DNA from: Myxococcales bacterium
GTDB lineage: Bacteria > Myxococcota_A > Polyangia > Palsa-1104 > JAEUJZ01
Assembly: GCA_016794505.1 (NCBI GenBank)
Contig: JAEUJZ010000141.1
Location: 18,204 to 82,203, forward strand
Reading direction: 5' to 3'
DNA: 64,000 nt
The notes under the pieces were generated by a model. It had not been told where the DNA came from. It worked only from the letters and a program-made list of their open reading frames with translations, and made no database searches. The position numbers and the translations under genes are program-made. Positions 13,066 to 64,000 of this stretch are shown piece after piece. Numbering within the stretch: position 1 is the first letter of the stretch; each line of letters opens with the position of its first letter.

Positions 13066-13076
13066 TCCGCGCCGAC

Positions 13077-22803: not shown

Positions 22804-24819
22804 TTACAGCTCAATTTGCGCACCCATCTCGACGACGCGGTTGGGGGGGATGCCAAAGAACGACGTCGCGGTCTTGGCGTTGCGCGACAGGAACGAAAAC
22901 AGCGCCTTGCGCCAGCGCGCCAAGCCCGACGAGCCCGTGGTCAGCAAGGTCTCGCGACCCAGGAAGTAACTGGTGTTCGCATCCAGCGTGTGCAGGCCCG
23001 CCTCGCGACAGCAGCGCAGGATGTCCGGCACGTTGGGCGTCTGCATGAAGCCATAGTGGGCGATGACCTGGAAGAAGCCGCGGCCTAGCTCGCGCACGGC
23101 AACGCGGCGGCTTGCTGGGACCTCGGGCACGCGGTCGGTGACAACCGCCAGCAGCACCACCTGTTCATGCAAGAGCTTGTTGTGCTTGATGTGATGCAAT
23201 AAGACCACGGGCGCACCGTCGGGATTGCTGGTCATAAAGACCGCCGTGCCAGGGACCCGCGGCACCTTGCGCTCGTCGAGATCGCAGAGGAACAGATCCA
23301 TCGGCAGGATGGCGCTTTGCACGAACGATTCCAGCGCGGCGCGGCCCGCTTTCCACGTCGTCATCAGCGCGTAAAGAGCCGCGGCGATGGTCAGCGTAAT
23401 CCAGCCGCCCGCGGCGATCTTGGCTGAGTTGGCCAAAAGAAACGCCACATCCAGGCTGAGAAACAGCGTCAGAAGCGCGCCGATCTTCCAGCGCGCCCAG
23501 CCCCAGCGCTCGTACGCCACGACGGCAAACAAGATGGATGTGATCGACATCGCGCCCGTCACCGCAATGCCATAAGCCGCGGCCAAGCCCGAGCTGCCTT
23601 CGTGTCGGAAGGCAAAGACCAAGGCCAGGCAGCCCGCGAGCAGGAACCAGTTGATCTCGGGGATATAGATCTGCCCCTCGGCGTGTCCCGAGGTGTGGAT
23701 GATCGAGACGCGCGGCCAGTAGCCAAGCTGCACCGCCTGTCGCGTCAGCGAGTACGAGCCCGAGATCAGCGCCTGCGAAGCGATGATCGCGGCGGCCGTG
23801 GCGATCCCGATCATCGGTAGCTGCAGCGCCTGCGGCACGACCTGAAAGAACGGGCTGAAGCTCGCTTTGTCGAAGTGCGAAAGCGAAAGCGTGTACGCCC
23901 CCTGACCGAAGTAGTTGAGCAACAACGCCGGGAACGCCACCGCGAACCAGGCCAGGCGGATCGGCCGTCGACCAAAGTGCCCCATGTCGGCATACAGCGC
24001 CTCGCCGCCTGTGATGCACAACACCACGGCCGACAGTGCAAAGAAGCCATGCATTTTATGTTGAATGAAAAAGTGCAGCGCATAATAGGGGTTTACAGCC
24101 CACAGGATACGCGGATATTTGATAATCCACCAAAGACCGATTAGCGCGATACTGGCGAACCAGATCAGCATCACCGGGCCGAACAGCGCGCCGACGCGCT
24201 CGGTGCCGCGCTTTTGAAACAGGAACAAAAGCACCAAGATGCCGGCGGTCAGCGGCGTGATGAAGTGCGTCATCGCCGGGAAGCGGACCTTAAGTCCCTC
24301 GACGGCGCCAAAGACCGAGATGACCGGTGTGATGGCACCATCGCCATAAAGCAGCGCCGTGCCAAACAAGGCCAAGAGCACCAGCACCATCCGCTTGCTG
24401 GCCTTTTTCCCGACGCTGCCGCGCGGTGCCAGCAGCGCCAGCAGCGACAGGATGCCGCCTTCGCCGTTGTTGTCGGCGCGCAAGATGAAGGTCAGGTACT
24501 TCAAGACGACGACCAAGAGCAGCGCCCAGAACACCAGCGACAAGATGCCCAAGACGTTTTCCGGGGTCGGCAGCACGCCGTGCTCGCCCGTGAAGCACTC
24601 GCGAATGGTGTAAAGCGGCGAGGTTCCGATGTCGCCATAGACGATACCGAGCGCACCCAGCGAGACCTTCAGCAGGTCGCGCGTGTTGCCGGGCTTGGGG
24701 GCGTGGGATGGCGATCCGGTGCTGGGGGTGCGGGCGGACGGGGGTTCCGACGAAGAAACGGCGCTCACCGACGGTGTCGAGCCGACGGCCGAGGCATCCG
24801 GTGGATTCACAGCGTTCAT
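22804..24819 (-). CDS. kup: Kup/HAK/KT-family potassium uptake transporter
   Basis: Contains LGALGIVYGDIGTSPLY near the N-terminus, about 12 hydrophobic segments, and a C-terminal cytoplasmic domain ending ...FFGIPPNRVVEMGAQIEL. The 671-aa length is typical. Confidence 0.92.
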   Translation of the reverse strand: MNAVNPPDASAVGSTPSVSAVSSSEPPSARTPSTGSPSHAPKPGNTRDLLKVSLGALGIVYGDIGTSPLYTIRECFTGEHGVLPTPENVLGILSLVFWALLLVVVLKYLTFILRADNNGEGGILSLLALLAPRGSVGKKASKRMVLVLLALFGTALLYGDGAITPVISVFGAVEGLKVRFPAMTHFITPLTAGILVLLFLFQKRGTERVGALFGPVMLIWFASIALIGLWWIIKYPRILWAVNPYYALHFFIQHKMHGFFALSAVVLCITGGEALYADMGHFGRRPIRLAWFAVAFPALLLNYFGQGAYTLSLSHFDKASFSPFFQVVPQALQLPMIGIATAAAIIASQALISGSYSLTRQAVQLGYWPRVSIIHTSGHAEGQIYIPEINWFLLAGCLALVFAFRHEGSSGLAAAYGIAVTGAMSITSILFAVVAYERWGWARWKIGALLTLFLSLDVAFLLANSAKIAAGGWITLTIAAALYALMTTWKAGRAALESFVQSAILPMDLFLCDLDERKVPRVPGTAVFMTSNPDGAPVVLLHHIKHNKLLHEQVVLLAVVTDRVPEVPASRRVAVRELGRGFFQVIAHYGFMQTPNVPDILRCCREAGLHTLDANTSYFLGRETLLTTGSSGLARWRKALFSFLSRNAKTATSFFGIPPNRVVEMGAQIEL

Positions 24820-26748: not shown

Positions 26749-28701
26749 TTAGATCGGATCGCGCGACAGCACGACAAGGCTGTACGGCCCCAGCGCCACG
26801 CCCCCAAAAAATGGCAGGCCATCGCGGGCGGTGTTCGTCGCCACGACATCGCTCGAAGGCGCTCCGCCAAAGTCCAGCGAGTAGCGACGGTCGTCGCTGT
26901 TCAGCCGCACTTTCCACGTGCCCGCCGCGGGCAGCCCGATGTCATAGCGGGTGTAGTTCCGATTTGCGAAGTTGGCGATCACGATCACGTCACGCTCGCC
27001 ATTCGACCGACGATAGGCCAGCACCTTGTCGCCGTCGTTCAGGTGGAAGATCTGGATGTCGCTGCCGGTCAGTCCAGCGCTCGTGCTGCCAAGGTTTCGG
27101 CGCAGCGCGATGGCGTCGCGGTAAAAGTCGACGATGCGGCTGTGTGCGCTGGCCCGCGTCCAGTCGAGCGGGGCCGGTGGATCGGCGAAGCGGCCGACCG
27201 ACAGGAACTCTTGCCCGGCGAACAGCATCGGCACGCCGGGCGCGGTCAGCAGGATGCCAGCGGCCAGGAGTGATCGCTTGCGCGCGGCCCAGCTTCCCGG
27301 ATCTGCGGGATCGATCTGCGAGGGCAGTCGCGTGCCCATGTTGCCGACGGTGTCGTGGCTTTCGCTGTAGATCACGCGCTGAAAGGGATCGCCGTTGTAG
27401 CGGCCACCCAAGGCATCGCGCACCGCATAGAGATTGCGCGCGGCGTCGCTGGCTCCGCTGACGGCTTGCGTCACTGCCCAGTGAAAGCCGCCGTCCCACT
27501 GGGTGTCGAAGCCGAGGCCGCCGCTCTCGATCGTGTCGGTGATGCCGGCATAGCCCTTGAGATCCTCGGCGATCAAGAGCGCGCCAGGGATCGCGCGCGA
27601 CTCGCGGTTGGCGCGCCGCAAAAGAGCCACGCCGCCCGGCACGCTGCCCTTGCCATCGACGGCGCGGATGTTTGACACCGAGTCCCAACGGAAGCCGTCG
27701 ATGCGGTACTCGCGGCGAAAGAACAGGACGTTGTCGACGATAAAGTCGGCGACTTCCTTGCGCGTGTAATCAAAGCGCGGGCCCCATGGCGTGCTCTTGT
27801 ACATGGGGTCGGAAAAGAAATACACGCCGCTGTTGTCGCGGCAGGCACCGTCGAAGCAGTAAAGCGGCGCTTTCTTCCAGCCGTCATAGTGGTTGTAAAC
27901 CATGTCCAGCACCACCGAGATGCCGCGGCGGTGCGCTTGGTCGACCAGGGTGCGAAGCTCGTCGGGACTGCCATACGGTGCGTGCGGCGCGAAGTAGCTG
28001 TGCGGGTTGTATCCCCAGCCGCGCGTGCTGCCGTGTGAGTTCGCGGGCATCAGCTCAAGGACGTTGATGCCGAGGTCGCGCAGCGTGTCCAGGCGCTCGC
28101 TGATCGAGGCGAAGCCGCAGCGCGCTGGATCTGTTGGGCAGTTGAAGCTGCCCGCGTGAAGCTCATACACGACGAGGCTGTTCTTGCCGGGGCGGACATA
28201 CGGCGGGCTGGTCCAGCGGTACGACGCCGGATCGACCAGCACCGACTGCCCGTCTTGCACCTGCCGGCCATAGGGGTCGAGACGCTGCAGCACGCTGCCA
28301 TCTTGCGCCGTGACCAGAAAGCGATAGCGCTGCCCGGCGCGGGCGCTGGCGACGCGGACCGCAAAGGCGCCATCGTGCGGTGGCGGCAGGCGGGTCATGG
28401 CAAGCGGCATCGTCGCGAAATCACCGTGCAGCGACACCGCCTTGGCCGACGGAGCCCACAGCCGAAATGTCGCGCCAGCCGAGCCGAGCGTCGCACCCAA
28501 GGGAGCCATCGCCAAGGCTGCAAGCTCAGCGGCAGCCGGCGCATCGCTCATCATCGGTGGCCCTTCGTCGCTGGGAAGCGGCGCGGCGGATCCCGCGCAG
28601 CCGACGAGCCACAGGGAAAACAGGCTGGCACGCCGCGTCCAAGACTGCGCACACAGGTTGTGCTGGAACATGCGCGCAGCATGCACAAGCCGCAGGCGCA
28701 T
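26749..28701 (-). CDS. GH13 alpha-amylase-family enzyme with an N-terminal CBM48/E-set domain (branching-enzyme/TreZ-like), with signal or lipobox
   Basis: The four GH13 regions are present: VVLDMVYNH, IDGFRWDSVSN, LLIAEDL, YSESHD. The N-terminal ATFRLWAPSAKAVSLHGDF is CBM48-like. The signal is LFSLWLVGCAGSA. Confidence 0.82.
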   Translation of the reverse strand: MRLRLVHAARMFQHNLCAQSWTRRASLFSLWLVGCAGSAAPLPSDEGPPMMSDAPAAAELAALAMAPLGATLGSAGATFRLWAPSAKAVSLHGDFATMPLAMTRLPPPHDGAFAVRVASARAGQRYRFLVTAQDGSVLQRLDPYGRQVQDGQSVLVDPASYRWTSPPYVRPGKNSLVVYELHAGSFNCPTDPARCGFASISERLDTLRDLGINVLELMPANSHGSTRGWGYNPHSYFAPHAPYGSPDELRTLVDQAHRRGISVVLDMVYNHYDGWKKAPLYCFDGACRDNSGVYFFSDPMYKSTPWGPRFDYTRKEVADFIVDNVLFFRREYRIDGFRWDSVSNIRAVDGKGSVPGGVALLRRANRESRAIPGALLIAEDLKGYAGITDTIESGGLGFDTQWDGGFHWAVTQAVSGASDAARNLYAVRDALGGRYNGDPFQRVIYSESHDTVGNMGTRLPSQIDPADPGSWAARKRSLLAAGILLTAPGVPMLFAGQEFLSVGRFADPPAPLDWTRASAHSRIVDFYRDAIALRRNLGSTSAGLTGSDIQIFHLNDGDKVLAYRRSNGERDVIVIANFANRNYTRYDIGLPAAGTWKVRLNSDDRRYSLDFGGAPSSDVVATNTARDGLPFFGGVALGPYSLVVLSRDPI

Positions 28702-28851: not shown

Positions 28852-30252
28852 ATGTCTAGCTTTGAGTACGATCTGCTCGTCATCGGCTCGGGCCCGGCCG
28901 GGCAGCGGGCAGCTATCCAGGCCGCCAAGCTGCGCAAGCGCGTCGCGGTCATCGAGCGTCGGGCCTCGCTGGGTGGTGTCTGCATCAACACCGGCACCAT
29001 CCCCAGCAAGACGCTGCGCGAAGCGGTGCTGTACTTTTCGGGCTATCGCGAGCGCAACCTGTACGGCGTCTCGCACGTGCTCAAGTCCAACGTCACCCTC
29101 GATGACCTGTTGTTTCGCACCTCGCATGTCATCCGCCACGAGCTCGACGTCATCCGTCACCAGCTGATGCGCAATCGCGTCGAGCTTCTGTCGGCCGATG
29201 CGGCGCTCTTGGATGCGCATACCGTGCGGCTGAAGTCTCTCGACGGAGTCGGCTATCGCGATGTGCGCTTTGCCCATTTGATCATCGCCACCGGCACGCA
29301 TGCGACGCGCGATGCCAGCATCCCGTTTGACGACCACACGATCTTTACCAGCGACGACATCCTGCGCTTGGATGCCTTGCCGCGGACGCTGGCTGTGGTC
29401 GGTGGCGGCGTCATCGGCTGCGAGTACGCGGCGATCTTTGCGGCGCTGGGTGTGCGCGTGACGATCATCGACAAGCGCACGCGGCTTCTGTCGTTTGTCG
29501 ACGCCGAGATCATGGACTCGCTGGCCTATCACCTGCGGCAGCAGCGCGTTACGCTGCGCCTGGGCGAAGAGGTCAGCGGTCTGCGGCCGATTCATGACGA
29601 GCGCGGGCAGCGCGTCAAGATCGAGCTAAAAAGCGGCAAGCAGATCGTCGCTGAAAAGGCCCTGTACAGCATCGGCCGAACCGGCGCCACCGAGTCCCTG
29701 AACCTGGCCAGCGTCGGCATCGAGCCCGACAGCCGCGGCCGCATCCCGGTCAACACGCACTTTCAGACCAGCCAGCCGCATATCTATGCCGTCGGCGATG
29801 TCATTGGCTTTCCCAGCTTGGCCTCGACGTCGATGGAGCAAGGTCGCCTGGCTGCCTGTCACGCGTTTTCGGTCGAGGCGCGCAGCGTGCCGGGCCTGTT
29901 TCCGTACGGCATCTACACCATTCCCGAGATCTCGATGGTCGGTCGCACCGAAGAAGAGCTGACCGATCTCGGCATTCCATATGAAGTCGGCAAAGCCCAC
30001 TATCGCGAGAGTGCGCGCGGCCAGATTACCGGCGACAACACCGGCCTTTTGAAGCTGATCTTTCACATCGAGACGCGCGAGCTCTTGGGGGTTCACATCC
30101 TTGGCGAAGGGGCGACCGAGCTGATTCACATCGGCCAAGCCGTGATGTCGTACGGCGGGCGCATCGATTACTTCATCAACACCGTCTTTAACTATCCAAC
30201 GCTGGCCGAGTGTTACAAGACCGCGGCCTTCGACGGCATCAACCGTCTGTGA
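28852..30252 (+). CDS. sthA: Soluble pyridine nucleotide transhydrogenase (Si-specific NAD(P)+ transhydrogenase)
   Basis: From the ATG at 28852: MSSFEYDLLVIGSGPAGQRAAIQAAKLRKRVAVIE...GGVCINTGTIPSK. It lacks the redox-active CxxxxC disulfide of lipoamide or glutathione reductases, as SthA does. At 466 aa it equals E. coli SthA. The C-terminus reads FNYPTLAECYK. Confidence 0.85.
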   Translation: MSSFEYDLLVIGSGPAGQRAAIQAAKLRKRVAVIERRASLGGVCINTGTIPSKTLREAVLYFSGYRERNLYGVSHVLKSNVTLDDLLFRTSHVIRHELDVIRHQLMRNRVELLSADAALLDAHTVRLKSLDGVGYRDVRFAHLIIATGTHATRDASIPFDDHTIFTSDDILRLDALPRTLAVVGGGVIGCEYAAIFAALGVRVTIIDKRTRLLSFVDAEIMDSLAYHLRQQRVTLRLGEEVSGLRPIHDERGQRVKIELKSGKQIVAEKALYSIGRTGATESLNLASVGIEPDSRGRIPVNTHFQTSQPHIYAVGDVIGFPSLASTSMEQGRLAACHAFSVEARSVPGLFPYGIYTIPEISMVGRTEEELTDLGIPYEVGKAHYRESARGQITGDNTGLLKLIFHIETRELLGVHILGEGATELIHIGQAVMSYGGRIDYFINTVFNYPTLAECYKTAAFDGINRL

Positions 30253-30261
30253 CGCGCCAGG

Positions 30262-30294
30262 GCTGGATCCTCGTGTCCAGCTTGCGGTTTTTGG
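30262..30294 (+). terminator. Candidate intrinsic terminator after sthA
   Basis: GCTGGA-(8 nt)-TCCAGC stem-loop, followed by TTGCGGTTTTTGG, starting 10 nt after the sthA stop. Confidence 0.3.
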
Positions 30295-30392: not shown

Positions 30393-32303
30393 GTGAGCAC
30401 CGCAAGCGCTGCACATCCGCAAAGGTTGCCGCTGCGCCAGGGGGATTCGGCGCTGACGTTGCAACAGCTCTTGGGCCTGTCGCTCTTTCAGGGGCTGTCG
30501 CGTCGAGCAGAGGCGCGGCTGCGCGGGAAACACGCGCAGGGACTGGCCGTCTTGCGTCACTATCGCGCGGGCGAGGTCATCTGCCGACAGGGCGAGCCGG
30601 GCTGGACCGCGTACTATCTGCTGCCGATCGCCGACCGGCTGTGGCTGCGGGAATCGCAAGAGGCCGCCGCCGAGATCTCGCAGGCTCGCTTGGCTGTTCG
30701 GTTGGGCGAGGTCGATGCCGCCGACGCATCTGAGTATTTGCCACCATCCACGGCAGAGCCCGAGGCTGCCGAGCCGGAAGACCTAGAGTCGCTGCGGCAA
30801 GCCGTGGCCTTTCGTCCTTCCGCGGATGAGCTCTCGGCGCTGCGGGCCGAGCGCGACCTGTTGGCGGCGGGCGATCGCAGCGAAGAAGAGCTTGCCGCAA
30901 GCCACTCGGACCTGCTGGCGCTGCCCGCTGCGGAAAAGCGCCGTCGGGCCGATGCGCTGGCAGAGCAAGATCGAGCGCTGGCCACCAAGCTTCAGCAGAC
31001 CGTCGAGTGTGCCGAGCGACGCATGCTGGCCCAGGTCTTCGTGCAAAAGACGACGGCTCCTGAAAAGAAGCCGCCGCCCGCGTCGGCGGGACGTTTGCTG
31101 CGGCTGCTGGGGCGACCGGATCGATCACCGCCGCGTTCTGCGCCGACGGGCGAGCCGGCCGCCTGGGATGAGACGCTGGTCGGTACGCTGCACGAAGGCG
31201 AGCTGTTCGGCGAGCTAAGCTGCTTGTACCAAACGCGACGCTCGGCGACGGTGCGCGCGCTCCGCGACTGCCATGTGCTGGAGTTCTTGGCCGTCGTGCT
31301 GGAGCTGCTTCTGACCAGCGAGCCCGTGCAGGCCGAGCTGAATGAGGTCTATCGCAAGCGCGTGCTGGGTCCGCAGCTTCGTGGCCTGCCGCTGTTCGCG
31401 CACGTCGCGGACGAGGCGATCGAGCTTTTGCGTCGGGGGGCAGAGATGATCAGCAAGCAGCCGGGCGAGGTCGTCTATGAAGAAGGGGCGCACGAGAGCT
31501 GCCTGTATCTGGTGCGCTCCGGGACGTTGAAGATCTACAGCGGCTCGGGAGAGCGCGTGCTTGGCTATCGCTCGCGCGGGGGCATCGTCGGGGAAAGCGA
31601 GCTTCTCAGCGGCGGTCCGCGATCTGCATCGTGTGCAGCGTATCAGCATCCCCGCGCGGACGGCAGCGAACGGGCGAAGGCGCTGCATGCGCTGCGCGTC
31701 GAGCTGGTGCGCATCGATCGTCCGCTCTTTGAACGGGTCTGTGCCCGCTTTCCGGCGTTTCGCCGACAGGTCGAACGAAACCTGCAAGACAGCGGCAGCG
31801 ACTCTTTGAGCCATCCGACGCAGCGCGTACAGGGCACATCGCGCTTCAACGATCTGGGCCTGAGCCAAGGGCGAAAGCTCATGCTGATTGATCTAGAGTC
31901 CTGCACGCTGTGCGGCGACTGCATCCGCGGCTGTGCCAGCGTGCAGGACGACGGGCTGCCCCGGCTCGCGTTGGCCGGCCCGCGCTTTGGCAAGTATCTG
32001 GTTCCGGTGTCGTGTCGGCAGTGCCACGAGCCGGTCTGTTTGTCCGGCTGCCCCGTCGGTGCGATTCATCACGGCGCGGCTTCCGAGATCGTCATTGAAG
32101 ACTGGTGCATCGGCTGCGGCCTGTGCGCCGCTCGCTGTCCGTATCAGGCCATCGAGCTGCGTTCAGACGCCGACCAAAAAGCGGTGGTCTGCGATCAGTG
32201 CGCGACACGGCCCCACGGTCCCGAGTGCGTTCGCGCCTGTCCGCATGATGCGGCCGGGCGGGTCGATGCCACCGCCTTTTTCGCGCGAGCGCGCGTGGTC
32301 TAG
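30393..32303 (+). CDS. Fusion protein: two cyclic-nucleotide-binding domains + a four-cluster [4Fe-4S] ferredoxin module (NrfC/DmsB-like); no signal peptide
   Basis: CNB domain 1 is split. The beta-roll start is RHYRAGEVICRQGEPGWTAYYLL and the phosphate-binding cassette is GELFGELSCLYQTRRSATVRAL. They are separated by a roughly 190-aa acidic, helical insert. CNB domain 2 reads LPLFAHV...PGEVVYEEGAHESCLYLVRSGTLKIY...GESELLSGGPRSAS. Four Cys clusters follow: CTLCGDCIRGC, CRQCHEPVCLSGCP, CIGCGLCAARCP, CDQCATRPHGPECVRACP. GTG start. Confidence 0.8.
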   Translation: MSTASAAHPQRLPLRQGDSALTLQQLLGLSLFQGLSRRAEARLRGKHAQGLAVLRHYRAGEVICRQGEPGWTAYYLLPIADRLWLRESQEAAAEISQARLAVRLGEVDAADASEYLPPSTAEPEAAEPEDLESLRQAVAFRPSADELSALRAERDLLAAGDRSEEELAASHSDLLALPAAEKRRRADALAEQDRALATKLQQTVECAERRMLAQVFVQKTTAPEKKPPPASAGRLLRLLGRPDRSPPRSAPTGEPAAWDETLVGTLHEGELFGELSCLYQTRRSATVRALRDCHVLEFLAVVLELLLTSEPVQAELNEVYRKRVLGPQLRGLPLFAHVADEAIELLRRGAEMISKQPGEVVYEEGAHESCLYLVRSGTLKIYSGSGERVLGYRSRGGIVGESELLSGGPRSASCAAYQHPRADGSERAKALHALRVELVRIDRPLFERVCARFPAFRRQVERNLQDSGSDSLSHPTQRVQGTSRFNDLGLSQGRKLMLIDLESCTLCGDCIRGCASVQDDGLPRLALAGPRFGKYLVPVSCRQCHEPVCLSGCPVGAIHHGAASEIVIEDWCIGCGLCAARCPYQAIELRSDADQKAVVCDQCATRPHGPECVRACPHDAAGRVDATAFFARARVV

Positions 32304-32309
32304 GTTCCG

Positions 32310-33233
32310 ATGCAAATCCGAAAAAAACACCGACGGTGGGCACTGCTGGTGGGAGCTGGCTGCGGGCTGGCCGTGCTGGCTGGCTGGTATGCACTGCGCA
32401 GCGCACCGACGGCACCGGGTCGCAGCCTGGTGTTGCTTTCGTTGGGAGCAGCGGCCGCGGTGCTGATCGTCTTTTCGTCCGCCTTGGGCCTTCGACGACG
32501 CCTGTCGCGCCTTGGCGTGGGCACCGCGGCTGGCTGGCTGCGAGCCCATCTGTGGCTGTCGTGGCTGAGTCTGGTGCTTTCGCTGGCGCACAGCGGTGCT
32601 CGCGCGAGTAGCCCACTTGGCACGGCTCTGGTTGCGTGTCTGCTTGTCTGCGTCGGAAGCGGCGCCGTGTTGGCACTTGTGCAGCGCATCGTACCAGGCT
32701 TGATGGCCGGCGACGCGACCTGGGAATACGCAGGCGATCCGCTGCAGACGATCACGCAGATCCGCGGCCGCGCATACCAGCTGATCTGGGCCGCCTGCGG
32801 GCATCCTCCCGACAGCGATGGCCACGTCGAAGCCAGGGCCGAGCGCGAAGCGATCCACAGCCTGCTCGGGGCGCCGCCCCCCGCCCCCGAGCGCAGTAGC
32901 CTGCTCTGCGACTTCACGCCCGGCCAGAAGAAGCTAGAGAGCTTCTACCGGCGCACCATGCTGCCCTTTTTTCGGGCCGAGCCTGCCGCGTTTTCGGTGC
33001 TGCACAAGGCCGCTGACGCCAAGCTGGCGTTCGATGCACTCAGCGGTGCAGTGGCCCCCGCGCTGCATCCCACCCTGCACGAACTTTCCGTCTTGTGTCA
33101 TGGCATGCGAGTGGCGCGGCGGCAGATTCGCTTCCAGGCGTTTCTGCGAGGCTGGTCGCTTTTGCACATCCCGCTGGCCATGGCCACGCTCACCCTTTTG
33201 TTCGTCCACGCCGTGACGGTGTTTCGGTACTAG
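32310..33233 (+). CDS. Integral membrane protein with two H-x13-H transmembrane helices (putative di-haem b-type cytochrome)
   Basis: It has five hydrophobic segments. Helix 3 reads RAHLWLSWLSLVLSLAHSG and the last helix reads LLHIPLAMATLTLLFVHAV. Each has two His residues exactly 13 residues apart. A soluble loop of about 130 aa separates them. It lies 6 nt after the previous gene and 3 nt before the next. Confidence 0.6.
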   Translation: MQIRKKHRRWALLVGAGCGLAVLAGWYALRSAPTAPGRSLVLLSLGAAAAVLIVFSSALGLRRRLSRLGVGTAAGWLRAHLWLSWLSLVLSLAHSGARASSPLGTALVACLLVCVGSGAVLALVQRIVPGLMAGDATWEYAGDPLQTITQIRGRAYQLIWAACGHPPDSDGHVEARAEREAIHSLLGAPPPAPERSSLLCDFTPGQKKLESFYRRTMLPFFRAEPAAFSVLHKAADAKLAFDALSGAVAPALHPTLHELSVLCHGMRVARRQIRFQAFLRGWSLLHIPLAMATLTLLFVHAVTVFRY

Positions 33234-33236
33234 CGC

Positions 33237-36008
33237 ATGTCGCAAGGGACTCGTGGCAGCATCCCTCGCTTTTCGATCTGGCGTGAATCACAGACCGGCT
33301 TTGCACGACGTGTTCTGTACATCGTCTCTCCGTTATGCGTCGCGGCGGCGGTGTTGCTGACCTGGCTGTTCGCGGGGGACTGGCTGTGGTCACCGGGACC
33401 GCTTTCGTCCGGCCACGCCATGTTGCAGCGCGACTGCGCGCAGTGCCATGCCAGTTCGGGTGCGGGCCTTGTTGCATCTGAGCGAGCGCGCGACGTTTCG
33501 CAGGCAAACCGCGCCTGCCTGCGCTGCCACAAGGCAACCATCGGCGCGTCGCCAAAGACCTTTACCGCCACCCACCACGAGCGCGCTGCCAGCGACGGAA
33601 GACCCTGCACGCACTGCCACATCGAGCATCGCGGGCAGCGGCTTTCCCTGGTGGCAAGCGAGTCGTGCATCGGCTGCCACCGCGATCTTGGCCCGATGCA
33701 GTCGGATGGGAAGGTATCGACCCATATCGCGGCATTTGCGCGCGGCGATCGCGCTGGCGACAGCGCCGCCAGCCTGCATCCCGAATTCCGCATCCTGGCC
33801 GAGAAGCGCGCCGATGCGGGCATTCTTGCATTCAACCACCAGCGTCATCTGTTCGGCGGAGCGATCTTGGGGCCGCAAGGGCGTCCCGTCGCGCTGTCCT
33901 GTCAGGACTGTCATCGTGCCACCGGGCAGGGCCCGTTTCGCTTTGGCCGCGGACACGATGCACGCGAGCCCTCGCGTGCGGCAGCGGCCCGACGCGGCGA
34001 TCACATGGCACCCATCGCGTTTTCTGCACACTGCGCGGGCTGCCATCCCCTGATGCTGATCGGGCACGCTGCGACGCTGGTCGGCAACGATGCAGTCGAT
34101 CGCGGTCACGTCCCGCATGCAACGCCGGCAGCGATTCGCGGGTATCTGCGCGGTCAGCTAGCCGCTTCTTCGCTCTCGTCCGCTGCGGCCGAGGCCGAGC
34201 TTTCTGCCATCGAGGGCCAGCTTTACGGCGATGCGAGCCATCCATCCCCGCTGTGCGGTGCCTGCCATACACTCAAGCGCGAGGGCGTTGAACACGGCGA
34301 GCTTCCCGTGGTTGTGCCGACGGCACTGCCAACGCGCTTTCTGCCGCGGGCGACGTTCAGCCATGCCAAGCACACGGCCGCCTCGCGGGGCAGCTATGGC
34401 TCGCTTTCGCTGCCTGCCGAAAGTGCCGACTGTCTGGGCTGCCACAGTCGCGCTGCCGACAGCCGCCTGACCTCGGATGTCTTGATGCCCAGCATTGAAG
34501 AGTGCCGTCGCTGCCACGCTCCGCCCAGCGGAACGGGAGCCGCGGCGCGCGGGGGCGTCTCGGATCGCTGCTCAATGTGCCACACCTATCACGTGCCGCC
34601 GCCGCAGGCCCTGGGGCCGACGCCGATTGCCGACGGAGCGGCCGAGGATACGCCCCCGCCGTCTCTGGTCGAGGCGGGCCAGCGCGAGGTCCGTCACGGC
34701 CTGCGCACATCGACGCCATTGTGGCCGCTGTCAGCGTTCTTCGAGCTTCCGCAAAAGGTCTGGGGACTGCCCGATGTGACGCCCCAAAGCCCGCGCTTCC
34801 AGGCCGAGGTCTTCCGTCGCTATGGCCTGTTTCCCGCCGACCGCGAAAATGACGGGCTGCCGCTCGGCCTGATCAAGACCGAAAGGACGTGGAAGGGCCA
34901 GCCGGGCCTGACCGTGACCTGCGAGTATTGTCATTCCTCGTCGCTGTTTGGGCAGATCGTGGTCGGCCAGCCGAACCCGTTTGCCGACATGGAACAGCTG
35001 TGGATCGACCTCGATGCGGTCTCAAACGGCCAGGGTAAGGACCCGCTTTACGAAAAGACACCGGCAGGCAACACCGTCGTAAACGGCGCCGATCATCTGG
35101 GGCTTCTGGGGCTTTACTATCGCAACTCCGATCTGACTGCGAGCCTGGGCAAGGCAGCGCGCTGGCTTCTGTCGAGTGGCCTGGCCGATCGTCCCGCCCA
35201 GATGAAGGCCGAGTTCGACGCGCTGGCCTATATCAAGACACCGCCCTGGTACACGTACGCGACGCGCAAGTCGGGGGCCTGTGGCCTTTACGCCGACGGA
35301 GGGCAGCCCAAGTACGGCAACTTCGCCGCCTTCACCTATCTTTTGACGTACCGCGACCTCGACGGGCAGGATCTGGCCACGGCGCTTGCGGCGTGGAAAC
35401 GCAGCGCGCCGGCCTTTTTGGCCAGCCTGAGCTCGCCGCGCTATCCCTTTTCCGTGCGCTCGTCGCTTTTGCCCCGCGGTCGCGCGCTGTACGACGCCAC
35501 GTGCGCCCGCTGCCATGGCCGCTATGCCGCGACGGATTCTTCGCCGACGGGCCTGTCTTATCCGGGGCTGGTCTTCCCGCTCGCCGAGATCGGCACCGAC
35601 CCCAAGCGAGCCCACTTTCCACCGTCGTTTACCGCGCGCATTCAGTCGATTTTGAACGAGCAGTACACCATCACCGGAGGCTATGCCGCACCGCCTTTGA
35701 CTGCCATCTGGTCGCGTGCGCCGTATCTGCACAACGGGTCGGTTCCGACGCTGGCAGAGCTGCTCGATCCACCCAGCCGGCGAGCCCGCTATGTCCTTGC
35801 CGCAAACCCCAACGCGCGGGCCGATTTCGACCACCAGCGCGTCGGCTGGCGCGTCGAGGTTCCACCGCCGGGAGCAACGCCTGCGACCGTCCATCGCCTG
35901 TATGACGCGGCGTTTGTTGAAGGTCTTGCCAACACCGGCCACACCTATGGCGCCGAGCTCAGTCCCGACGATCGCGAGGCGCTGCTGGAGTTCCTAAAGA
36001 CGCTGTAG
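33237..36008 (+). CDS. Membrane-anchored multihaem c-type cytochrome (12 CxxCH) with a C-terminal di-haem peroxidase/MauG-like region
   Basis: N-terminal TM anchor: VLYIVSPLCVAAAVLLTWLF. CxxCH motifs: CAQCH, CLRCH, CTHCH, CIGCH, CQDCH, CAGCH, CGACH, CLGCH, CRRCH, CSMCH (first ~480 aa), then CEYCH and CARCH in the last ~440 aa. The tail also has APPLTAIWSRAPYLHNGSVPTLAELL, which resembles the distal-ligand region of di-haem cytochrome c peroxidase-family proteins. Confidence 0.85.
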   Translation: MSQGTRGSIPRFSIWRESQTGFARRVLYIVSPLCVAAAVLLTWLFAGDWLWSPGPLSSGHAMLQRDCAQCHASSGAGLVASERARDVSQANRACLRCHKATIGASPKTFTATHHERAASDGRPCTHCHIEHRGQRLSLVASESCIGCHRDLGPMQSDGKVSTHIAAFARGDRAGDSAASLHPEFRILAEKRADAGILAFNHQRHLFGGAILGPQGRPVALSCQDCHRATGQGPFRFGRGHDAREPSRAAAARRGDHMAPIAFSAHCAGCHPLMLIGHAATLVGNDAVDRGHVPHATPAAIRGYLRGQLAASSLSSAAAEAELSAIEGQLYGDASHPSPLCGACHTLKREGVEHGELPVVVPTALPTRFLPRATFSHAKHTAASRGSYGSLSLPAESADCLGCHSRAADSRLTSDVLMPSIEECRRCHAPPSGTGAAARGGVSDRCSMCHTYHVPPPQALGPTPIADGAAEDTPPPSLVEAGQREVRHGLRTSTPLWPLSAFFELPQKVWGLPDVTPQSPRFQAEVFRRYGLFPADRENDGLPLGLIKTERTWKGQPGLTVTCEYCHSSSLFGQIVVGQPNPFADMEQLWIDLDAVSNGQGKDPLYEKTPAGNTVVNGADHLGLLGLYYRNSDLTASLGKAARWLLSSGLADRPAQMKAEFDALAYIKTPPWYTYATRKSGACGLYADGGQPKYGNFAAFTYLLTYRDLDGQDLATALAAWKRSAPAFLASLSSPRYPFSVRSSLLPRGRALYDATCARCHGRYAATDSSPTGLSYPGLVFPLAEIGTDPKRAHFPPSFTARIQSILNEQYTITGGYAAPPLTAIWSRAPYLHNGSVPTLAELLDPPSRRARYVLAANPNARADFDHQRVGWRVEVPPPGATPATVHRLYDAAFVEGLANTGHTYGAELSPDDREALLEFLKTL

Positions 36009-36052: not shown

Positions 36053-37234
36053 ATGAACCCATCGCATCCTGCCTCTACACCGTCGAGCCAGCCTTCCCTG
36101 GACGCAGAGAAGGCCCCAGCCAGCAGCCGGCGCAGCGCTGCCATCGACTGGATGCGCGGCCTGGTGATGATCGTGATGACCTTGGATCATGCCTCGCACG
36201 CTTGGAATGCCGGGCGCCTGGTCACCGATGGCGTCACGCTGTATGTCCCCGGCCAGCCGCTGCCGGGCGCGCAGTTTTGGGCGCGCTTTATCACGCACCT
36301 GTGCTTGCCGATGTTCATGTTCTTGTCCGGCGTCTCGCTGTGCATCAGCACCGAGTCCCGCGTCGCCCGCGGCGAATCACCGAGGCAGATCGATCGCCAC
36401 TTGCTGGGCCGCGGCGCTCTGCTCATCGTGCTCGACTGGCTGTGGATGTCGTGGGTGTGGTCCCCGCGCGAGGGCTTGATGCTCGGTGTGCTGTCGGCGA
36501 TCGGCCTTTCGATCTGGGCCATGACCGCGCTGCGCCGTCTGTCGAGCCGCGCCTTGCTGGTCATCGCCGCTCTGTGGCTGCTCGGCAGCGAGCTTTTGTG
36601 CGGCCTGCTTTATTCGATCGAAGGCCCGATCAGCCGCTTCGCCGTCGGCTTTCTGTGTACAGGCCGCCACTTTCACGACGTTCACATCATGGTCACCGAG
36701 CCGATGGTGCCGTGGTTTCCGCTGATGCTGTTCGGCTGGCTGTGTCAGCGGCACATCCTGTCGCAGCCGCGGCCCGTGCCACGCCTTTTGGCCCTGGCCG
36801 CGCTGTCGCTGTTCGTCTTTGTCGTCGTGCGCGCCGAAAATGGCTACGGCAACATGCGGCTTCTGCGCGTCGATTCGTCGCTTGTGCAGTACCTGCACGT
36901 CAGCAAGTACCCCGCCAGCTTGACCTTTGTGACGCTAGAGCTGGGCCTGGGCCTGCTGGTTTTCGCGGCGTTCGTCGCCATCGCGGCGCGGAGCCAGGGC
37001 ACAAAGACCCGCCTCGATGCGACGCTGCTTCTGGGGCAGACCTCGCTTTTTTATTACCTGGTTCACGTTCACCTGCTGCAGCTTGCCGCCTGGGCGACGG
37101 GTCAGCAGCAAGCCAGCACGCTGCTCACGACCGTCGGGGCCACTGGGTTGACGATCGCTGTGCTCTATCCGCTGTGCTGGGGTTTCCGCGCTCTGCGGCG
37201 CCGCCACCCCCACAGCATCCTGCGTCATCTGTGA
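36053..37234 (+). CDS. DUF1624 / heparan-alpha-glucosaminide N-acetyltransferase-like membrane acyltransferase
   Basis: The AIDWMRGLVMIVMTLDHASH motif lies near the N-terminus, followed by about 9-10 hydrophobic segments. This matches the DUF1624 family as I recall it. Confidence 0.7.
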   Translation: MNPSHPASTPSSQPSLDAEKAPASSRRSAAIDWMRGLVMIVMTLDHASHAWNAGRLVTDGVTLYVPGQPLPGAQFWARFITHLCLPMFMFLSGVSLCISTESRVARGESPRQIDRHLLGRGALLIVLDWLWMSWVWSPREGLMLGVLSAIGLSIWAMTALRRLSSRALLVIAALWLLGSELLCGLLYSIEGPISRFAVGFLCTGRHFHDVHIMVTEPMVPWFPLMLFGWLCQRHILSQPRPVPRLLALAALSLFVFVVVRAENGYGNMRLLRVDSSLVQYLHVSKYPASLTFVTLELGLGLLVFAAFVAIAARSQGTKTRLDATLLLGQTSLFYYLVHVHLLQLAAWATGQQQASTLLTTVGATGLTIAVLYPLCWGFRALRRRHPHSILRHL

Positions 37235-41479: not shown

Positions 41480-43225
41480 TTACGTCCGCGTCCAGTCAAA
41501 GACGGGGCGCTCGGGCTTGCCATAGCTGCTTAGCGCGCCGCGCTCTCCGGTGGCGTTGGGGCGGATGAAGATCCAGTTCTGCCAGGCGGACAGGCGACCG
41601 AAGATGCGCTGCTCCATGCCTTCGCCACAGGCGGCGGCGCGCAGGTTCTGTTCCATGCCGGTCAGCGCATCAGGCGACAAGCTCAAGCGCTCTTCAAGGG
41701 CCAGGCGCAGGGTGTCAGCAAAGTCGATCTCGTCGGCCAGCACCGTGACCAAGCCCAGCGCATCGGCCGTCTGGGCATCAAATGGCGCGCGGTGTTCCAG
41801 CACCGCTTGCACCTTCTCGGACGCGCCATAAAAACGCACATCCAGGCGGCTGCGTCCGTCGAGAAGCGGCAGCGCTCCACCGTTTAGCGGGCTGGTCGCA
41901 AACTGCGTCGGCGCCCCCGCGTCGTCGAGTACATAGCTGCGATCGGCAGAAAGAAGGATCTCAAGCAAGCTGCCGGCAAAGCAGGTGCCGGGCTCGGCCA
42001 CTGCGAACAGCGTCTTGGACGTCTGATCCAGGCGGCGCAGCGTGCGCGCCATCAAAAGCAGGATCTCGCGAGCCAGCCAGTCCTTTTGCAGCGCCCACAG
42101 CGCGGCATCGGCGCGGACCACTGCGGCCGGATCTCCCTCGGTGCGCAGCACGATCAGGCCGACGGTTGGTTCGTGAAAACGCAGGCGCAAGATGGCGTCG
42201 TCTAGCTCGCGAAAGGCGCGCAGCGCCCAGCTTTGACCGGCTGCTGCCTGCGCGTGCAGCGCCTCGACGGAGTCCGGCGCAGCATAGCCAGCGTCGGGAG
42301 CACGCACGGTAAGCGTCGCCATGCGGCGCGCACGCTCAATCTTCAGCTCGACGTGACGATAGCGAATGCTGTCATCGCGGACCTGCGGCGAAAGCGGCTC
42401 AAGCTCGATGCCGTTCGTCGTCGGTCCCGCGCCGGTCTTCGAAAGAAGCTTCTGCGCTCGCGCTTGCACCGCCTGTGGAAAGCGGCTGCGCGGAGCGATC
42501 TCGTCGACCAGGCGCCAGTCGACGGCGCGCTTGCCACGGATGCCCTCGGCCAGCGTCGAAAAGATGTCGGCGCGATCGCGGCGCACCTGGCGCTTGTCAA
42601 GAAGCCGCGTCAGACCGCCAGTTCCCGGCAGCACGCCCAAAAGCGGCACTTCCGGCAAGGCCACCGTGCTGCTGCCGTCGTCGATCAGCAGGATCTCGTC
42701 GCAGGCCATGGCCAGCTCATAGCCGCCGCCAGCACAGGGACCGCTGACGGCCGCCAGGTACTTCTGCCCGCTCTTCTGCGAGGCATCTTCGATCGCAAGG
42801 CGCGTCTCGTTGGTGTACTTGCAGAAGTTCACTTTGAAGCCGTGCGTCGACGCTGCCAGCATGTGGATGTTGGCTCCGGCGCAGAACACGCGATCGCGGC
42901 CACTGCCCAAGATGACGACGCGCACCTGCGGGTGGGCAAAGCGCAGGCGCTGCACGGCGTCGCACAGCTCAATATCAACCCCCAGATCGTATGAGTTGAG
43001 CTTCAGCGGATAGCCCGGCACCAGCGGCTCGTCCTCGCGCACCGCCATGTCTAGGCGGGCGATCGCGCCGTCGACGTTCAGCTTCCAGTGTCGGTATCGC
43101 GAGGGGTGGGTCTCAAAGCTGGCTGGCACCTTGGCCGCCCCCGAAGACGCGGACCCGTAGCCAGAAGACGAGCCAGAAGACGAGCCAGAAGACGAGCCAG
43201 AAGTGGAAGAAGTCGACGCAGCCAT
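41480..43225 (-). CDS. boxC: 2,3-epoxybenzoyl-CoA dihydrolase (benzoyl-CoA-dihydrodiol lyase), a two-domain crotonase-family enzyme
   Basis: From the ATG at 43225 there is a Ser/Gly-repeat N-terminus. Then follow FETHPSRYRHWKL.VDG.IA.L.M.V.ED, LNSYDLGVDIEL.DA.QR.RF.HP.V and VF.AGANI.ML, with a second crotonase-like half. It is about 580 aa and lies immediately upstream of boxB on the same strand. Confidence 0.8.
   Translation of the reverse strand: MAASTSSTSGSSSGSSSGSSSGYGSASSGAAKVPASFETHPSRYRHWKLNVDGAIARLDMAVREDEPLVPGYPLKLNSYDLGVDIELCDAVQRLRFAHPQVRVVILGSGRDRVFCAGANIHMLAASTHGFKVNFCKYTNETRLAIEDASQKSGQKYLAAVSGPCAGGGYELAMACDEILLIDDGSSTVALPEVPLLGVLPGTGGLTRLLDKRQVRRDRADIFSTLAEGIRGKRAVDWRLVDEIAPRSRFPQAVQARAQKLLSKTGAGPTTNGIELEPLSPQVRDDSIRYRHVELKIERARRMATLTVRAPDAGYAAPDSVEALHAQAAAGQSWALRAFRELDDAILRLRFHEPTVGLIVLRTEGDPAAVVRADAALWALQKDWLAREILLLMARTLRRLDQTSKTLFAVAEPGTCFAGSLLEILLSADRSYVLDDAGAPTQFATSPLNGGALPLLDGRSRLDVRFYGASEKVQAVLEHRAPFDAQTADALGLVTVLADEIDFADTLRLALEERLSLSPDALTGMEQNLRAAACGEGMEQRIFGRLSAWQNWIFIRPNATGERGALSSYGKPERPVFDWTRT
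43160..43207 (-). repeat. 12-bp tandem repeat (about 3.7 copies) encoding the (SSGS)n N-terminus of BoxC
   Basis: On the plus strand, GCCAGAAGACGA occurs three times (43160-43195), followed by GCCAGAAGTGGA. The repeat is in frame and encodes SSGSSSGSSSGSSSG. Confidence 0.85.
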
Positions 43226-43454
43226 GGATGCCCCTTTACCGCATCCGCGCGTCGAAACACAAGCGCCTCTCCCTCGAAACGATCGGCGTGCTGCGGCTTG
43301 GCCGGGCGGTTGGGTTTTGTGGCTGGGGCCGCGCCGAAAACTCGGCCCGGTCTGTCCTTGGCAGCCCTGTCCCGCCTTTGTGCTTCCGAGGCCACGTGAC
43401 CGAGTGATACAATTTCTCGACGGGGATCGGGCCACACTCAGGTCCGCACAGGCC

Positions 43455-45002
43455 ATGCTCAGCGTTGGACAGACGGTTGGAAGTTATCGCGTCACGCGCC
43501 TGCTCGGCGAAGGCGCTATGGGTCAGGTGTTCGAGGGTCTGCAGGAAGAGATCGGCAAGCGCGTCGCGCTGAAAGTCCTGCACCCGCATCTCGCCCAGTT
43601 TCCCGAGGCAGTGAACCGCTTTTTGAACGAGGCGCGGGCGGTGAACCTGATCGGCCACCCCAGCCTGGTGACGATCTTTGAGTCGGGCCGCCTGCCCGAC
43701 GGTGCCGCCTACATCGTCATGGAATACCTGGAAGGCGAGACGCTGTCGGCGCGCATCCAGAACGGCGGCCTGACCATCGCCGACACCATGCGCCTCGGCC
43801 GCCAGATCGCATCCGCCCTAAAAGCCGCCCACGAAAAGGGCATCGTTCACCGAGACCTGAAGCCCGAGAATGTGTTTGTGGTGCGGGATCCTGAGGCGGC
43901 GTCGGGGGAACGGGCGAAGATTCTGGACTTTGGGATCGCCAAGCTCAGCGAGGAACAGCAGGGCAAGGGGGCACTGGTCAAGACGGCGGCCGGCACGATG
44001 CTGGGCACGCCGCTTTACATGTCGCCCGAGCAGTGCGACGGCATGACCCACGTCGACGGCAAGAGCGACGTGTACTCGCTCGGCGTGCTGTTGTTCGAGA
44101 TGCTGACTGGCGAGCCGCCTTTTTCCGGGCTGAGCGTCAACGCTGTGATGCTCAAGCACGTCTCGGCGCCGGTTCCGCATATCCGCGACCGCAACCCGCT
44201 GGTCCCCGATGCACTGGGGCATCTTTTGCGACGGATGATGGCCAAAGACGTCGCGGAGCGCCCAAGCATGGCAGAGGCCGCAGGCGAGCTTGAAGGGCTG
44301 CTGGCGCAGGTGCCGGGAGGCGGCCTCTCGGGGGCCTCGCTGGATGCGCTGGCTCCGACGCTCATGCAGGCACGCAAGACGGGGTCTGGGATGACGGGCG
44401 GAGCCGGGCAAACAGCGCCCGCGAGCGCGCCCGCGGAAAGCGATCCAGTGGCCGTGCGCGGTGCTGTGCCACTGCAGCCGCTGCGTTCATCCGTTGGGCC
44501 TGCCGCCCCTGAAAGCGCAGCGGGCAGCATCGGTCAGGCGCCCAGCGAAGCCTCCCAGCCAACGCGCAAGCGTGCCGTCCTGTTCGTCGGGGGGGGACTG
44601 GCTGTGCTGGGCCTGCTTGGGGCGGCTGTGGCCGTGCTGGCGCCGCGACTCAAGCCACAAAAAGTGCGGCTGCAGGTCGCAATACAGGGCGAGGTCGACG
44701 CCGGTCGCGTGATCTCGGTTCCCGTCGGCATCGACTGTGGCTATGCCTGCAGCGAGCGCTTTGCCAAGGGCACGCGGGTCCATTTGAGCGCAACGCCGGC
44801 TCTCGGGTATGAGTTTGCAGGCTGGTCTGGTGACTGCAGCGACAGCGGGCCCTGCAGTCTGCTTCTGCGCTGGGATCAAGAAGTACAGGCCCGCTTTGTC
44901 CGCAAGGCCCAGAGCCCGTCGCGAGCCAGCAATGCCCCCGCAGCGCCCGCCGCCGGTCCAAGCAGCCCCACCCCGCGCAAAAGCGGCAAAACCAAGCGCT
45001 AA
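43455..45002 (+). CDS. Ser/Thr protein kinase with a TM segment and an extracytoplasmic Cys-containing repeat domain
   Basis: From the ATG at 43455: [44 protein letters not shown]. The TM segment is [22 protein letters not shown]. The C-terminal block [46 protein letters not shown] resembles the G.V.S.P.GI.CG..C...F..G..V.L.A.P..G..F.GWSG.C repeat family (divergent InlB B-repeat-like). Confidence 0.88.
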
Positions 45003-47068: not shown

Positions 47069-47222
47069 TCGCTCAGCATACGAGGCAGGGCCGAGAAATT
47101 GCCGAGCTCTGTGCGAAGTGCCACCTTGCCGCGTCATGCATCGCGGGTTACTTCTAGAAATGAATCGGATGGATGAACCAATAAGCCTTCCCGATTCCCT
47201 TCACCTGCCTTAGGAGTCCGCC

Positions 47223-63980: not shown

Positions 63981-64000
63981 GGCTGCCAGAAAGCTGTCGT

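Follow-up and report, generated by a model that had tools for sequence, protein, structure and literature searches.

The window analysed here, a 64-kb stretch (64,000 nucleotides) of contig JAEUJZ010000141.1 from a Myxococcales bacterium, carries at 30393–36008 three consecutive open reading frames (ORFs) on the forward strand, which we call genes 1, 2 and 3 and interpret below as a predicted conduit for electrons from the cytoplasm to the periplasm. Their products correspond in type to PtdE, PtdF and PtdG, three members of a putative operon, ptd, to which we return. Only 6 nt (TAG GTTCCG ATG) separate gene 1 from gene 2, and 3 nt (TAG CGC ATG) separate gene 2 from gene 3, confirming the coordinates and gaps given in a preliminary description of this DNA. 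The three are not chance ORFs of a G+C-rich genome, because homologues stand in the same order in distant genomes. The genes and their predicted parts are listed here.

30393–32303, forward strand: gene 1, 636 aa, GTG start.
30480–31292, forward strand: first cyclic nucleotide monophosphate (cNMP)-binding domain of gene 1, residues ~30–300, with the cassette FGE...RRSAT at residues 272–285 (at least 90% conserved).
30675–31097, forward strand: Ala/Glu/Arg-rich insertion of ~140 aa within the first cNMP-binding domain, residues ~95–235.
31380–31772, forward strand: second cNMP-binding domain of gene 1, residues ~330–460; the best stretch against Pfam cNMP_binding is residues 356–416.
31881–32300, forward strand: predicted four-cluster ferredoxin domain of gene 1, residues 497–636, with 16 Cys in four groups.
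32310–33233, forward strand: gene 2, 307 aa.
32541–32597, forward strand: helix 3 of gene 2, with H80-x13-H94.
33153–33224, forward strand: helix 5 of gene 2, with H286-x13-H300.
33237–36008, forward strand: gene 3, 923 aa.
33312–33380, forward strand: signal-anchor helix of gene 3, residues ~26–48, assigned by hydropathy, with Arg-rich sequence before it.
33414–34592, forward strand: decahaem domain of gene 3, residues 60–452, homologous to the PtdG-type decahaem partner.
34779–36005, forward strand: RoxA-like di-haem domain of gene 3, residues ~515–923, with CxxCH at 562 and 756.

Gene 1 matches the Pfam family cNMP_binding over two stretches (E = 9e-28), and the phosphate-binding cassettes of both domains, FGE...RRSA in the first and GE...R.A in the second (G400-E401...R410-x-A412), are at least 90% conserved. 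The Ala/Glu-rich insertion in the first domain is a feature of the window's clade and is probably helical or disordered; alignment occupancy across it is 0–30%, that is, most homologues lack it. The 16 Cys of the ferredoxin domain lie at residues 504–514, 541–553, 572–582 and 600–616. Scored over 78 homologues, 15 of the 16 are invariant, and the other, C603, is Cys in 73. Fer4_11 reaches 33.3 bits against a gathering cut-off of 26.2, and Fer4_7 and Fer4_9 also exceed their gathering cut-offs. The Pfam matches and the 16 Cys confirm the two cNMP domains and the four-cluster iron–sulphur (FeS) module that the preliminary description had recognised, and its cytoplasmic placement of the protein also stands, the N-terminus having neither a hydrophobic signal nor a twin-arginine motif.

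That description went astray in its emphasis on an FeS module of the NrfC/DmsB type, said to be normally periplasmic. The best NCBIfam matches of the domain are instead HydN/HycB and the N-terminal ferredoxin modules of AegA, YgfT and PadI (E = 1e-9 to 4e-16), with scores far below the equivalog cut-offs; we take PadI, AegA and YgfT to be cytoplasmic proteins. An exported NrfC/DmsB-type subunit was ruled out, as DmsB scores 56.9 bits against 214 and NrfC 41 against 378, and both export features are missing. HydN/HycB, AegA, YgfT and PadI share the pattern of four times four Cys with gene 1, but none of them has cNMP domains or a partner of the gene 2 family. A Pfam scan of gene 1 found no recognisable output domain such as a helix-turn-helix, a kinase or a cyclase. 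Judged by its domains, gene 1 encodes a predicted cytoplasmic cNMP-binding FeS protein of the PtdE type.

Gene 2 carries two pairs of His, H80-x13-H94 and H286-x13-H300, both on hydrophobic helices. Its AlphaFold model, built with 50 homologues (pLDDT, the predicted local distance difference test, 90.5), has five long membrane-type helices, four within residues 7–133 and a long fifth at 250–306, with a helical domain at 134–249 between them; model and sequence agree with the five helices and two H-x13-H pairs noted earlier. In an alignment of 50 relatives (23–56% identity) the invariant columns are W76, H80, H94, G118, Q125, H286 and H300, so that all four His of the pairs are kept throughout. 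Lys and Arg cluster in three places: the N-terminus, the loop joining helices 2 and 3, and the stretch that follows helix 4. By this distribution and the positive-inside rule, the N-terminus and the 134–249 domain are predicted to be cytoplasmic, which would place H80/H286 near the inner face of the membrane and H94/H300 near the outer (periplasmic) face.

The relatives of gene 2 offer some indication of its fold. Among the 50 homologues, 21 weakly match Ferric_reduct (PF01794) and DUF4405 (best Ferric_reduct E = 1.8e-5) and eight weakly match Ni_hydr_CYTB. Neither gene 2 nor any of the 50 has a Pfam match to an NrfD family, the polytopic membrane subunit of the NrfCD, alternative complex III and Psr-type modules. 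Ten unusually long homologues (516–883 aa) had no Pfam domains and showed no informative fusions, and searching PDB sequences with a profile of the gene 2 family returned nothing. The proposed kinship to ferric-reductase domains rests on the weak Pfam matches of the relatives, because the structure and PDB searches were negative. We describe gene 2 as a predicted di-haem b cytochrome of the PtdF type, distantly similar to ferric reductases and DUF4405.

Gene 3, with its single N-terminal helix and exactly 12 CxxCH sites (ten at residues 67–449, then 562 and 756), has the composition that had been noted before. In an alignment of 41 sequences, comprising the window protein and 40 decahaem partners, all ten CxxCH of the decahaem domain and nine further His are invariant, and a phmmer comparison of the domain with partner ORFs from the survey below matched 74 of 75 (E from 1e-61 to 1e-16 among the matches listed). 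The C-terminal region had been called di-haem peroxidase-like. Its place in the di-haem superfamily holds, and by sequence it belongs specifically to the RoxA-like branch: RoxA-like_Cyt-c (PF21419) scores 60.8 bits against a cut-off of 26.7 (E = 8.9e-17), and a profile of the clade matches RoxA (PDB 4b2n) with E = 1.3e-31 over RoxA residues 165–575 and 617–662. The NCBIfam model NF040606, 'di-heme cytochrome c peroxidase', gives 124.5 bits (E = 7e-36), below its cut-off of 150, and a Pfam scan of gene 3 found no match to CCP_MauG (PF03150). The alignment to 4b2n takes in the two haem motifs and PPL..W..APY.HNGSVP, together with the GH motif near the C-terminus, which supplies an axial His in RoxA. 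MbnH (PDB 6e1c) is a weaker match, the RoxA, RoxB and RoxC equivalogs of NCBIfam are not reached (51–64 bits against cut-offs of 900–1000), and an AlphaFold model of the domain from a nine-sequence alignment has a pLDDT of 42.

The C-terminal 410 aa of gene 3 thus align with RoxA, but here the domain is fused to a membrane-anchored decahaem, and we know of no characterised member of the bacterial cytochrome c peroxidase (bCCP)/MauG/RoxA group that is fused to such a wire. The fusion is limited to a small clade of about eight protein clusters. Gene 3 as a whole is predicted to be a membrane-anchored periplasmic cytochrome c with 12 haem sites.

An exhaustive profile search of representative proteins with the gene 2 family returned 2171 at E ≤ 0.001, 960 of them at E ≤ 1e-10; a word-index search with gene 2 had given seven relatives. 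Scanning one genome per species, we found at least 583 loci with gene 2 homologues; at least that many species genomes in the scan, from at least eight phyla, carry the family. We analysed the best 80 of these loci (denoted L with a number) by calling ORFs, running the domain profiles of gene 1, counting CxxCH sites and clustering all ORFs. They come from Acidobacteriota, Planctomycetota (including metagenome-assembled genomes, MAGs, of Kuenenia stuttgartiensis), Rokubacteria, Methylomirabilota, Verrucomicrobiia, Binatia, Eremiobacterota and Proteobacteria. All 80 contain the gene 2 homologue, 77 a cNMP-FeS protein of the gene 1 type adjoining it, and 75 a decahaem cytochrome of ~450 aa of the gene 3 type; in almost every locus that holds them the trio genes are adjacent and on the same strand. 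The genes are thus co-conserved as a unit. The preliminary description would have been contradicted by a lack of co-conservation, by gene 2 homologues without the His pairs, by export of gene 1 or by poorly conserved Cys clusters, and each of these points comes out in its favour. A three-gene unit is nevertheless not the whole of it: most genomes add two genes, one of them a core component, that are missing from the window.

The core addition is a fused NuoE–NuoF-like flavoprotein of ~560 aa (domains 2Fe-2S_thioredx, Complex1_51K and NADH_4Fe-4S), by its domains an FMN/FeS module of the NADH-dehydrogenase type. In 70 of the 80 loci its gene immediately precedes the gene 1 homologue, for example at L039:4155–5843 and L035:4115–5830. 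The other is a c554-type tetrahaem cytochrome, encoded divergently and present in 58; the Planctomycetota loci L010, L025 and L030 carry a tetrahaem gene near the trio. The commonest order is a divergent tetrahaem gene followed, in one direction, by the NuoEF-like gene, gene 1, gene 2 and the decahaem gene. In Kuenenia, gene 2 and the decahaem gene come first, and the NuoEF-like gene, gene 1 and a gene for the soluble NAD(P)+ transhydrogenase SthA follow on the same strand. In the window's clade the trio stands without the NuoEF-like and tetrahaem genes, and the decahaem is fused to the RoxA-like di-haem domain. The trio also stands alone in the nearest relatives (gene 3 identity 53–68%), where its neighbours vary and include Lactamase_B, MacAB-type efflux and acyltransferase genes.

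Two further kinds of gene recur beside the operon. SthA adjoins the system in 14 of the 80 other loci (among them L015, L026, L028, L035–L037, L044, L053, L057, L058, L065, L067 and L087), in at least four distinct arrangements that include the window's own. Because the arrangements differ, inherited synteny alone is an unlikely explanation of the association, and the placement points to a functional connection with the supply of NAD(P)H. An adenylate/guanylate cyclase with a CHASE2 domain adjoins the operon in 12 of the 80 loci (for instance at L087:10290–12647, reverse strand). At the Planctomycetota-type locus L007, the trio is accompanied by one more multihaem cytochrome, by a Guanylate_cyc gene and by an NDH-2 (Pyr_redox_2) fused to a cNMP-binding domain, the cyclase and the fused NDH-2 being encoded at 12338–14113 and 15647–17314, both on the forward strand; L010 and L030 have a cNMP-domain ORF of similar size downstream. 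Several respiratory flavoproteins in such lineages may be under cyclic-nucleotide control.

Our literature search turned up a single relevant paper, a preprint of 2023–24. It describes a putative ptdABCDEFG operon, found through transcribed ptdAB in alphaproteobacterial MAGs from a marine oxygen-deficient zone, in which PtdA is a pentahaem cytochrome, PtdB a porin, PtdC an FAD/NAD(P) oxidoreductase, PtdD a tetrahaem cytochrome, PtdE a cNMP-binding protein with 4Fe-4S clusters, PtdF a ferric-reductase-like membrane protein and PtdG a decahaem; it also reports the system in Nitrospirales (bioRxiv 10.1101/2023.11.21.568154). By these descriptions, composition and order of the window trio match PtdE/PtdF/PtdG: gene 1 has the features given for PtdE, and gene 3 is the decahaem of PtdG with an extra di-haem domain appended; for gene 2 the ferric-reductase likeness given for PtdF shows as weak matches of its homologues. 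The window differs in having no pentahaem (PtdA), tetrahaem (PtdD) or PtdC-type gene, and no porin (PtdB), though no search was aimed specifically at the last. The 16 Cys of gene 1 are enough for four clusters, whereas the preprint states two for PtdE. The preliminary description knew of no characterised module of this composition; that the system is uncharacterised still stands, but its composition had already been named. The trio is thus not a categorically new kind of system, because this preprint names its composition; the window holds a stand-alone variant of a named and very widespread one, marked by the sthA gene before it and by the fused RoxA-like domain. Measured against the accessible part of the preprint, the NuoEF-like partner, the links to SthA and cyclases, the four-cluster count and the phylogenetic breadth are new, so that the survey adds hypotheses missing from this sole earlier mention, concerning a NuoEF-like donor, a connection with SthA and the cyclases nearby.

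The reading we favour, and regard as probable, is that the trio forms a cNMP-gated electron conduit from cytoplasm to periplasm that in this genome ends at a di-haem catalytic site. A conduit had been proposed before; comparative data back its architecture, while the electron flow, its direction and its gating are what we infer, along with cofactor binding, topology, donor and acceptor, from the domain content, conserved ligands, gene order and co-occurrence described above. A cytoplasmic donor would reduce the four [4Fe-4S] clusters of gene 1. From there electrons would move first to the b-haem of gene 2 on the inner side (H80/H286), next to the outer one (H94/H300) and then along the chain of ten c-haems in gene 3. 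The decahaem of the window's clade would hand them to the fused RoxA-like domain, which would reduce a periplasmic oxidant, most obviously O2 or a peroxide. NAD(P)H is the probable ultimate donor, as suggested by the NuoEF-like protein in 70 of the 80 loci, the cNMP-fused NDH-2 of L007 and the recurrent SthA. The direction would be outward: NADH lies at −320 mV and the membrane potential is negative inside, both of which make outward transfer favourable. The two cNMP domains of gene 1 would probably act as a cAMP- or cGMP-responsive switch that turns the path on or off, a role suggested by their conserved cassettes and the neighbouring cyclases. Tight gating is plausible because outward electron transfer dissipates the membrane potential.

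Several points weigh against this interpretation. Folds of the cNMP-binding type sometimes take other ligands. RoxA is a dioxygenase that works without external electrons, so the fused RoxA-like domain need not be a terminal reductase, and modules of the NuoEF type are reversible in other enzymes. Neither the 64-kb window nor the nearest relatives contain a NuoEF-like gene, and tblastn and HMM searches of the window found no cyclase. Gene 2 of the window has no Pfam match at E ≤ 0.1 and no NCBIfam match, and a Foldseek comparison of its model with the PDB returned nothing at E ≤ 0.001, the top matches being unrelated helical proteins. The preprint calls the function of ptd 'completely unknown' (bioRxiv 10.1101/2023.11.21.568154).

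The best placed of the other explanations, though we think it unlikely, is that the trio is the inner-membrane part of a porin–cytochrome system for extracellular electron transfer (Ptd), passing electrons to outer-membrane cytochromes and on to extracellular metals instead of to a catalytic site in the periplasm. The company of the genes elsewhere speaks for this: a tetrahaem gene is present in 58 of the 80 loci and a nonahaem-LVIVD gene in 28, and the preprint groups PtdE, PtdF and PtdG with a porin and with penta- and tetrahaem cytochromes, proposing a part in extracellular electron transfer (bioRxiv 10.1101/2023.11.21.568154). The window itself tells against it, with no homologue of the tetrahaem or nonahaem proteins by tblastn and no ORF other than gene 3 with more than one CxxCH. 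The decahaem of this clade is fused instead to a RoxA-like di-haem domain, and the clade's neighbours (Lactamase_B, MacAB-like efflux, acyltransferase) are unrelated.

Gene 2 could alternatively oxidise or reduce menaquinol or ubiquinol, a role proposed for other membrane b-cytochromes that work with periplasmic enzymes, with gene 1 as a regulatory or auxiliary redox subunit and not the point of electron entry. Related membrane b-cytochromes (MsrQ and the HydC/FdnI-type module of CbcL) do exchange electrons with the quinone pool, and the weak Ni_hydr_CYTB matches of eight of the 50 gene 2 homologues fit such a role. For a quinol oxidase, however, the four-cluster chain of gene 1 and the NuoEF-like protein of 70 loci would be superfluous, and we identified no quinone-site motif, so we judge a quinol-linked module a distinctly long shot. 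Improbable to a further degree is a redox- or cyclic-nucleotide-sensing device, in which haems and clusters would report the periplasmic redox state to a cytoplasmic partner. Its cNMP domains are of the sensor type, and some genomes have cyclases and a cNMP-domain NDH-2 close by; gene 1, however, has no recognisable output domain, a cNMP-binding domain is itself an input domain, and twenty-plus redox centres with an NADH-dehydrogenase module far exceed what a sensor needs. Least probable of all, and only faintly so, is inward flow from periplasmic or extracellular donors through gene 1 and the NuoEF-like protein to reduce NAD+: the reversibility of NuoEF-type modules and the presence of the system in Kuenenia MAGs and the Nitrospirales mentioned above, both lithotrophs in need of reverse electron transport, would suit it, but such flow would be opposed by the membrane potential and would also face a climb of ~0.5 V to NAD+, and no coupling site, such as a proton pump or bifurcating module, is visible in the unit.

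With the outward, cNMP-gated conduit as our working interpretation, its nearest mechanistic analogue, by resemblance of gene 2, would be the transporters with ferric-reductase domains, NOX/FRE and MsrQ (YedZ). Like these, gene 2 would stack two bis-His b-haems held by His pairs on helices 3 and 5 with one helix between, here at a 13-residue spacing, and the shared logic would be the transfer of cytoplasmic electrons derived from NAD(P)H to an extracytoplasmic acceptor, which in MsrPQ is a periplasmic enzyme. Gene 2 differs in having five predicted helices against six and no PF01794 match of its own; unlike NOX/FRE it has, at 307 aa, no fused FAD/NAD(P)H domain, whose place is taken by the FeS protein and, in most loci, the NuoEF-like protein.

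The complexes Tmc, Hmc and DsrMKJOP of sulfate reducers likewise connect the two compartments through periplasmic multihaem c, membrane cytochrome b and cytoplasmic FeS components, but they use a NarI/HdrE-type cytochrome b and an HdrD-type FeS protein with CCG domains, and they lack cNMP domains and an NADH-dehydrogenase module. Pfam found no Nitrate_red_gam or CCG match in genes 1 and 2 or the gene 2 homologues. At the periplasmic end, the quinol peroxidases YhjA of E. coli and QPO of Aggregatibacter resemble gene 3 as single periplasmic polypeptides that unite an N-terminal membrane anchor with an extra electron-supplying haem domain and a catalytic di-haem domain; they have three haems, a canonical bCCP domain and a quinol donor, where gene 3 has twelve predicted haems, a RoxA-like domain and, as we propose, a dedicated path of FeS clusters and haem b. 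Membership of the trio in the alternative complex III (ACIII), NrfCD, Tmc/Hmc or CbcL-type systems was ruled out because the defining subunits are missing, in line with the earlier view that the layout is not that of ACIII, NrfCD or CbcL.

The gene 2 family has more than 2000 representatives, and no Pfam or NCBIfam model matches the window protein. The operon is conserved in abundant lineages of soil, sediment and wastewater, namely Acidobacteriota, Planctomycetota including anammox bacteria, Rokubacteria and Methylomirabilota. These lineages would, if our interpretation is right, share an unrecognised, allosterically switched route by which cytoplasmic reducing power reaches the periplasm, with consequences for redox balancing, for the use of electron acceptors in the periplasm or outside the cell and for the defence against oxidative stress. 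The window's variant gives the clearest hint of what the wire could feed because it ends in a predicted catalytic di-haem domain. More tentatively, and with the odds as we see them somewhat against it, the system could represent a respiratory module of a new, regulated class: a vent gated by cAMP or cGMP that would dissipate the membrane potential and release NAD(P)H electrons through FeS clusters, two b-haems and a decahaem to periplasmic acceptors, wired in the window's clade to a RoxA-like site and so acting as a trans-membrane, NAD(P)H-driven enzyme that would reduce O2 or peroxide in the periplasm. A respiratory electron path controlled by a second messenger at the level of the protein would be a novelty.

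On either side of the trio lie the following features.

28852–30252, forward strand: sthA, encoding an SthA-type soluble NAD(P)+ transhydrogenase of 466 aa, upstream of gene 1.
30260–30283, forward strand: terminator-like hairpin with a T-run, directly after the sthA stop (consensus scan).
36053–37234, forward strand: Acyltransferase_3/HGSNAT-type membrane protein (Pfam match), 44 nt 3' of gene 3.

The upstream product is an SthA equivalog (NCBIfam NF003585, 648 bits against a cut-off of 465) and is 50–52% identical by tblastn to SthA encoded beside the homologous operon elsewhere. A PtdC- or NDH-2-type identity for this flavoprotein was thereby ruled out. It is the only flavoprotein gene adjoining the trio in the window and is probably an accessory gene of the system that is transcribed separately. 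A scan of the region upstream of the trio found no sigma-70-like promoter site; the trio probably has a promoter of its own in the 140-nt gap between sthA and gene 1, for which the hairpin after sthA is weak evidence. No terminator stands between gene 3 and the acyltransferase gene. As the latter is kept at that place in the closest relatives, it may be co-transcribed with the trio, but it is outside the conserved system: only the nearest relatives, L001 and L002 (71% identity), retain it downstream of gene 3. A second class-I pyridine nucleotide-disulfide oxidoreductase (Pyr_redox_2 and Pyr_redox_dim) is encoded in the window at 45680–47200, reverse strand, and appeared as a weak generic match in the flavoprotein search. 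An HMM search of the window for further cNMP/FeS proteins returned gene 1 alone.

Other genes recur near the operon in the surveyed genomes. The nonahaem-LVIVD protein (~1100–1250 aa, mostly with nine CxxCH and a weak ExtM-like stretch) lies downstream of the operon in Acidobacteriota, for example at L077:12561–15905 on the reverse strand, and could be a periplasmic or outer acceptor. A protein with an HbpS-like (haem-degrading/haem-binding) domain is encoded near the operon in 19 loci (e.g., L080:10606–12189, forward strand). MacAB-type efflux genes, comprising a periplasmic adaptor, an FtsX/MacB permease and an ABC ATPase, adjoin the stand-alone trio in three separate lineages, at L004:12350–16905 (reverse strand), L090:12714–15840 (forward) and L092:9487–12658 (forward); the L004 ATPase carries a cNMP-binding domain, and the window has no such genes.

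Farther out in the window, three genes encode Ser/Thr protein kinases (4764–7685, 17056–19638 and 43161–45002, all on the forward strand), the first with two kinase domains and TPR repeats; so many kinases agree with a genome of Myxococcota- or Planctomycetota-like character. Two encode glucan-branching-type enzymes of different families, GH57 with BE_C at 14958–16847 (forward) and GH13 with CBM48 at 26749–28701 (reverse). The flanks also hold TatC (9202–10149, forward) and a Kup K+ transporter (22804–24819, reverse). Rfam and tRNA scans of the 64-kb window found nothing. Between 60 and 62 kb the G+C content is 0.58, against ~0.65 elsewhere, and beside this dip an ORF at 62403–63998 (reverse strand) combines an Xre/MbcA/ParS antitoxin C-terminal domain with DUF1841; the segment 60001–63998 may be a mobile or toxin–antitoxin-related island.

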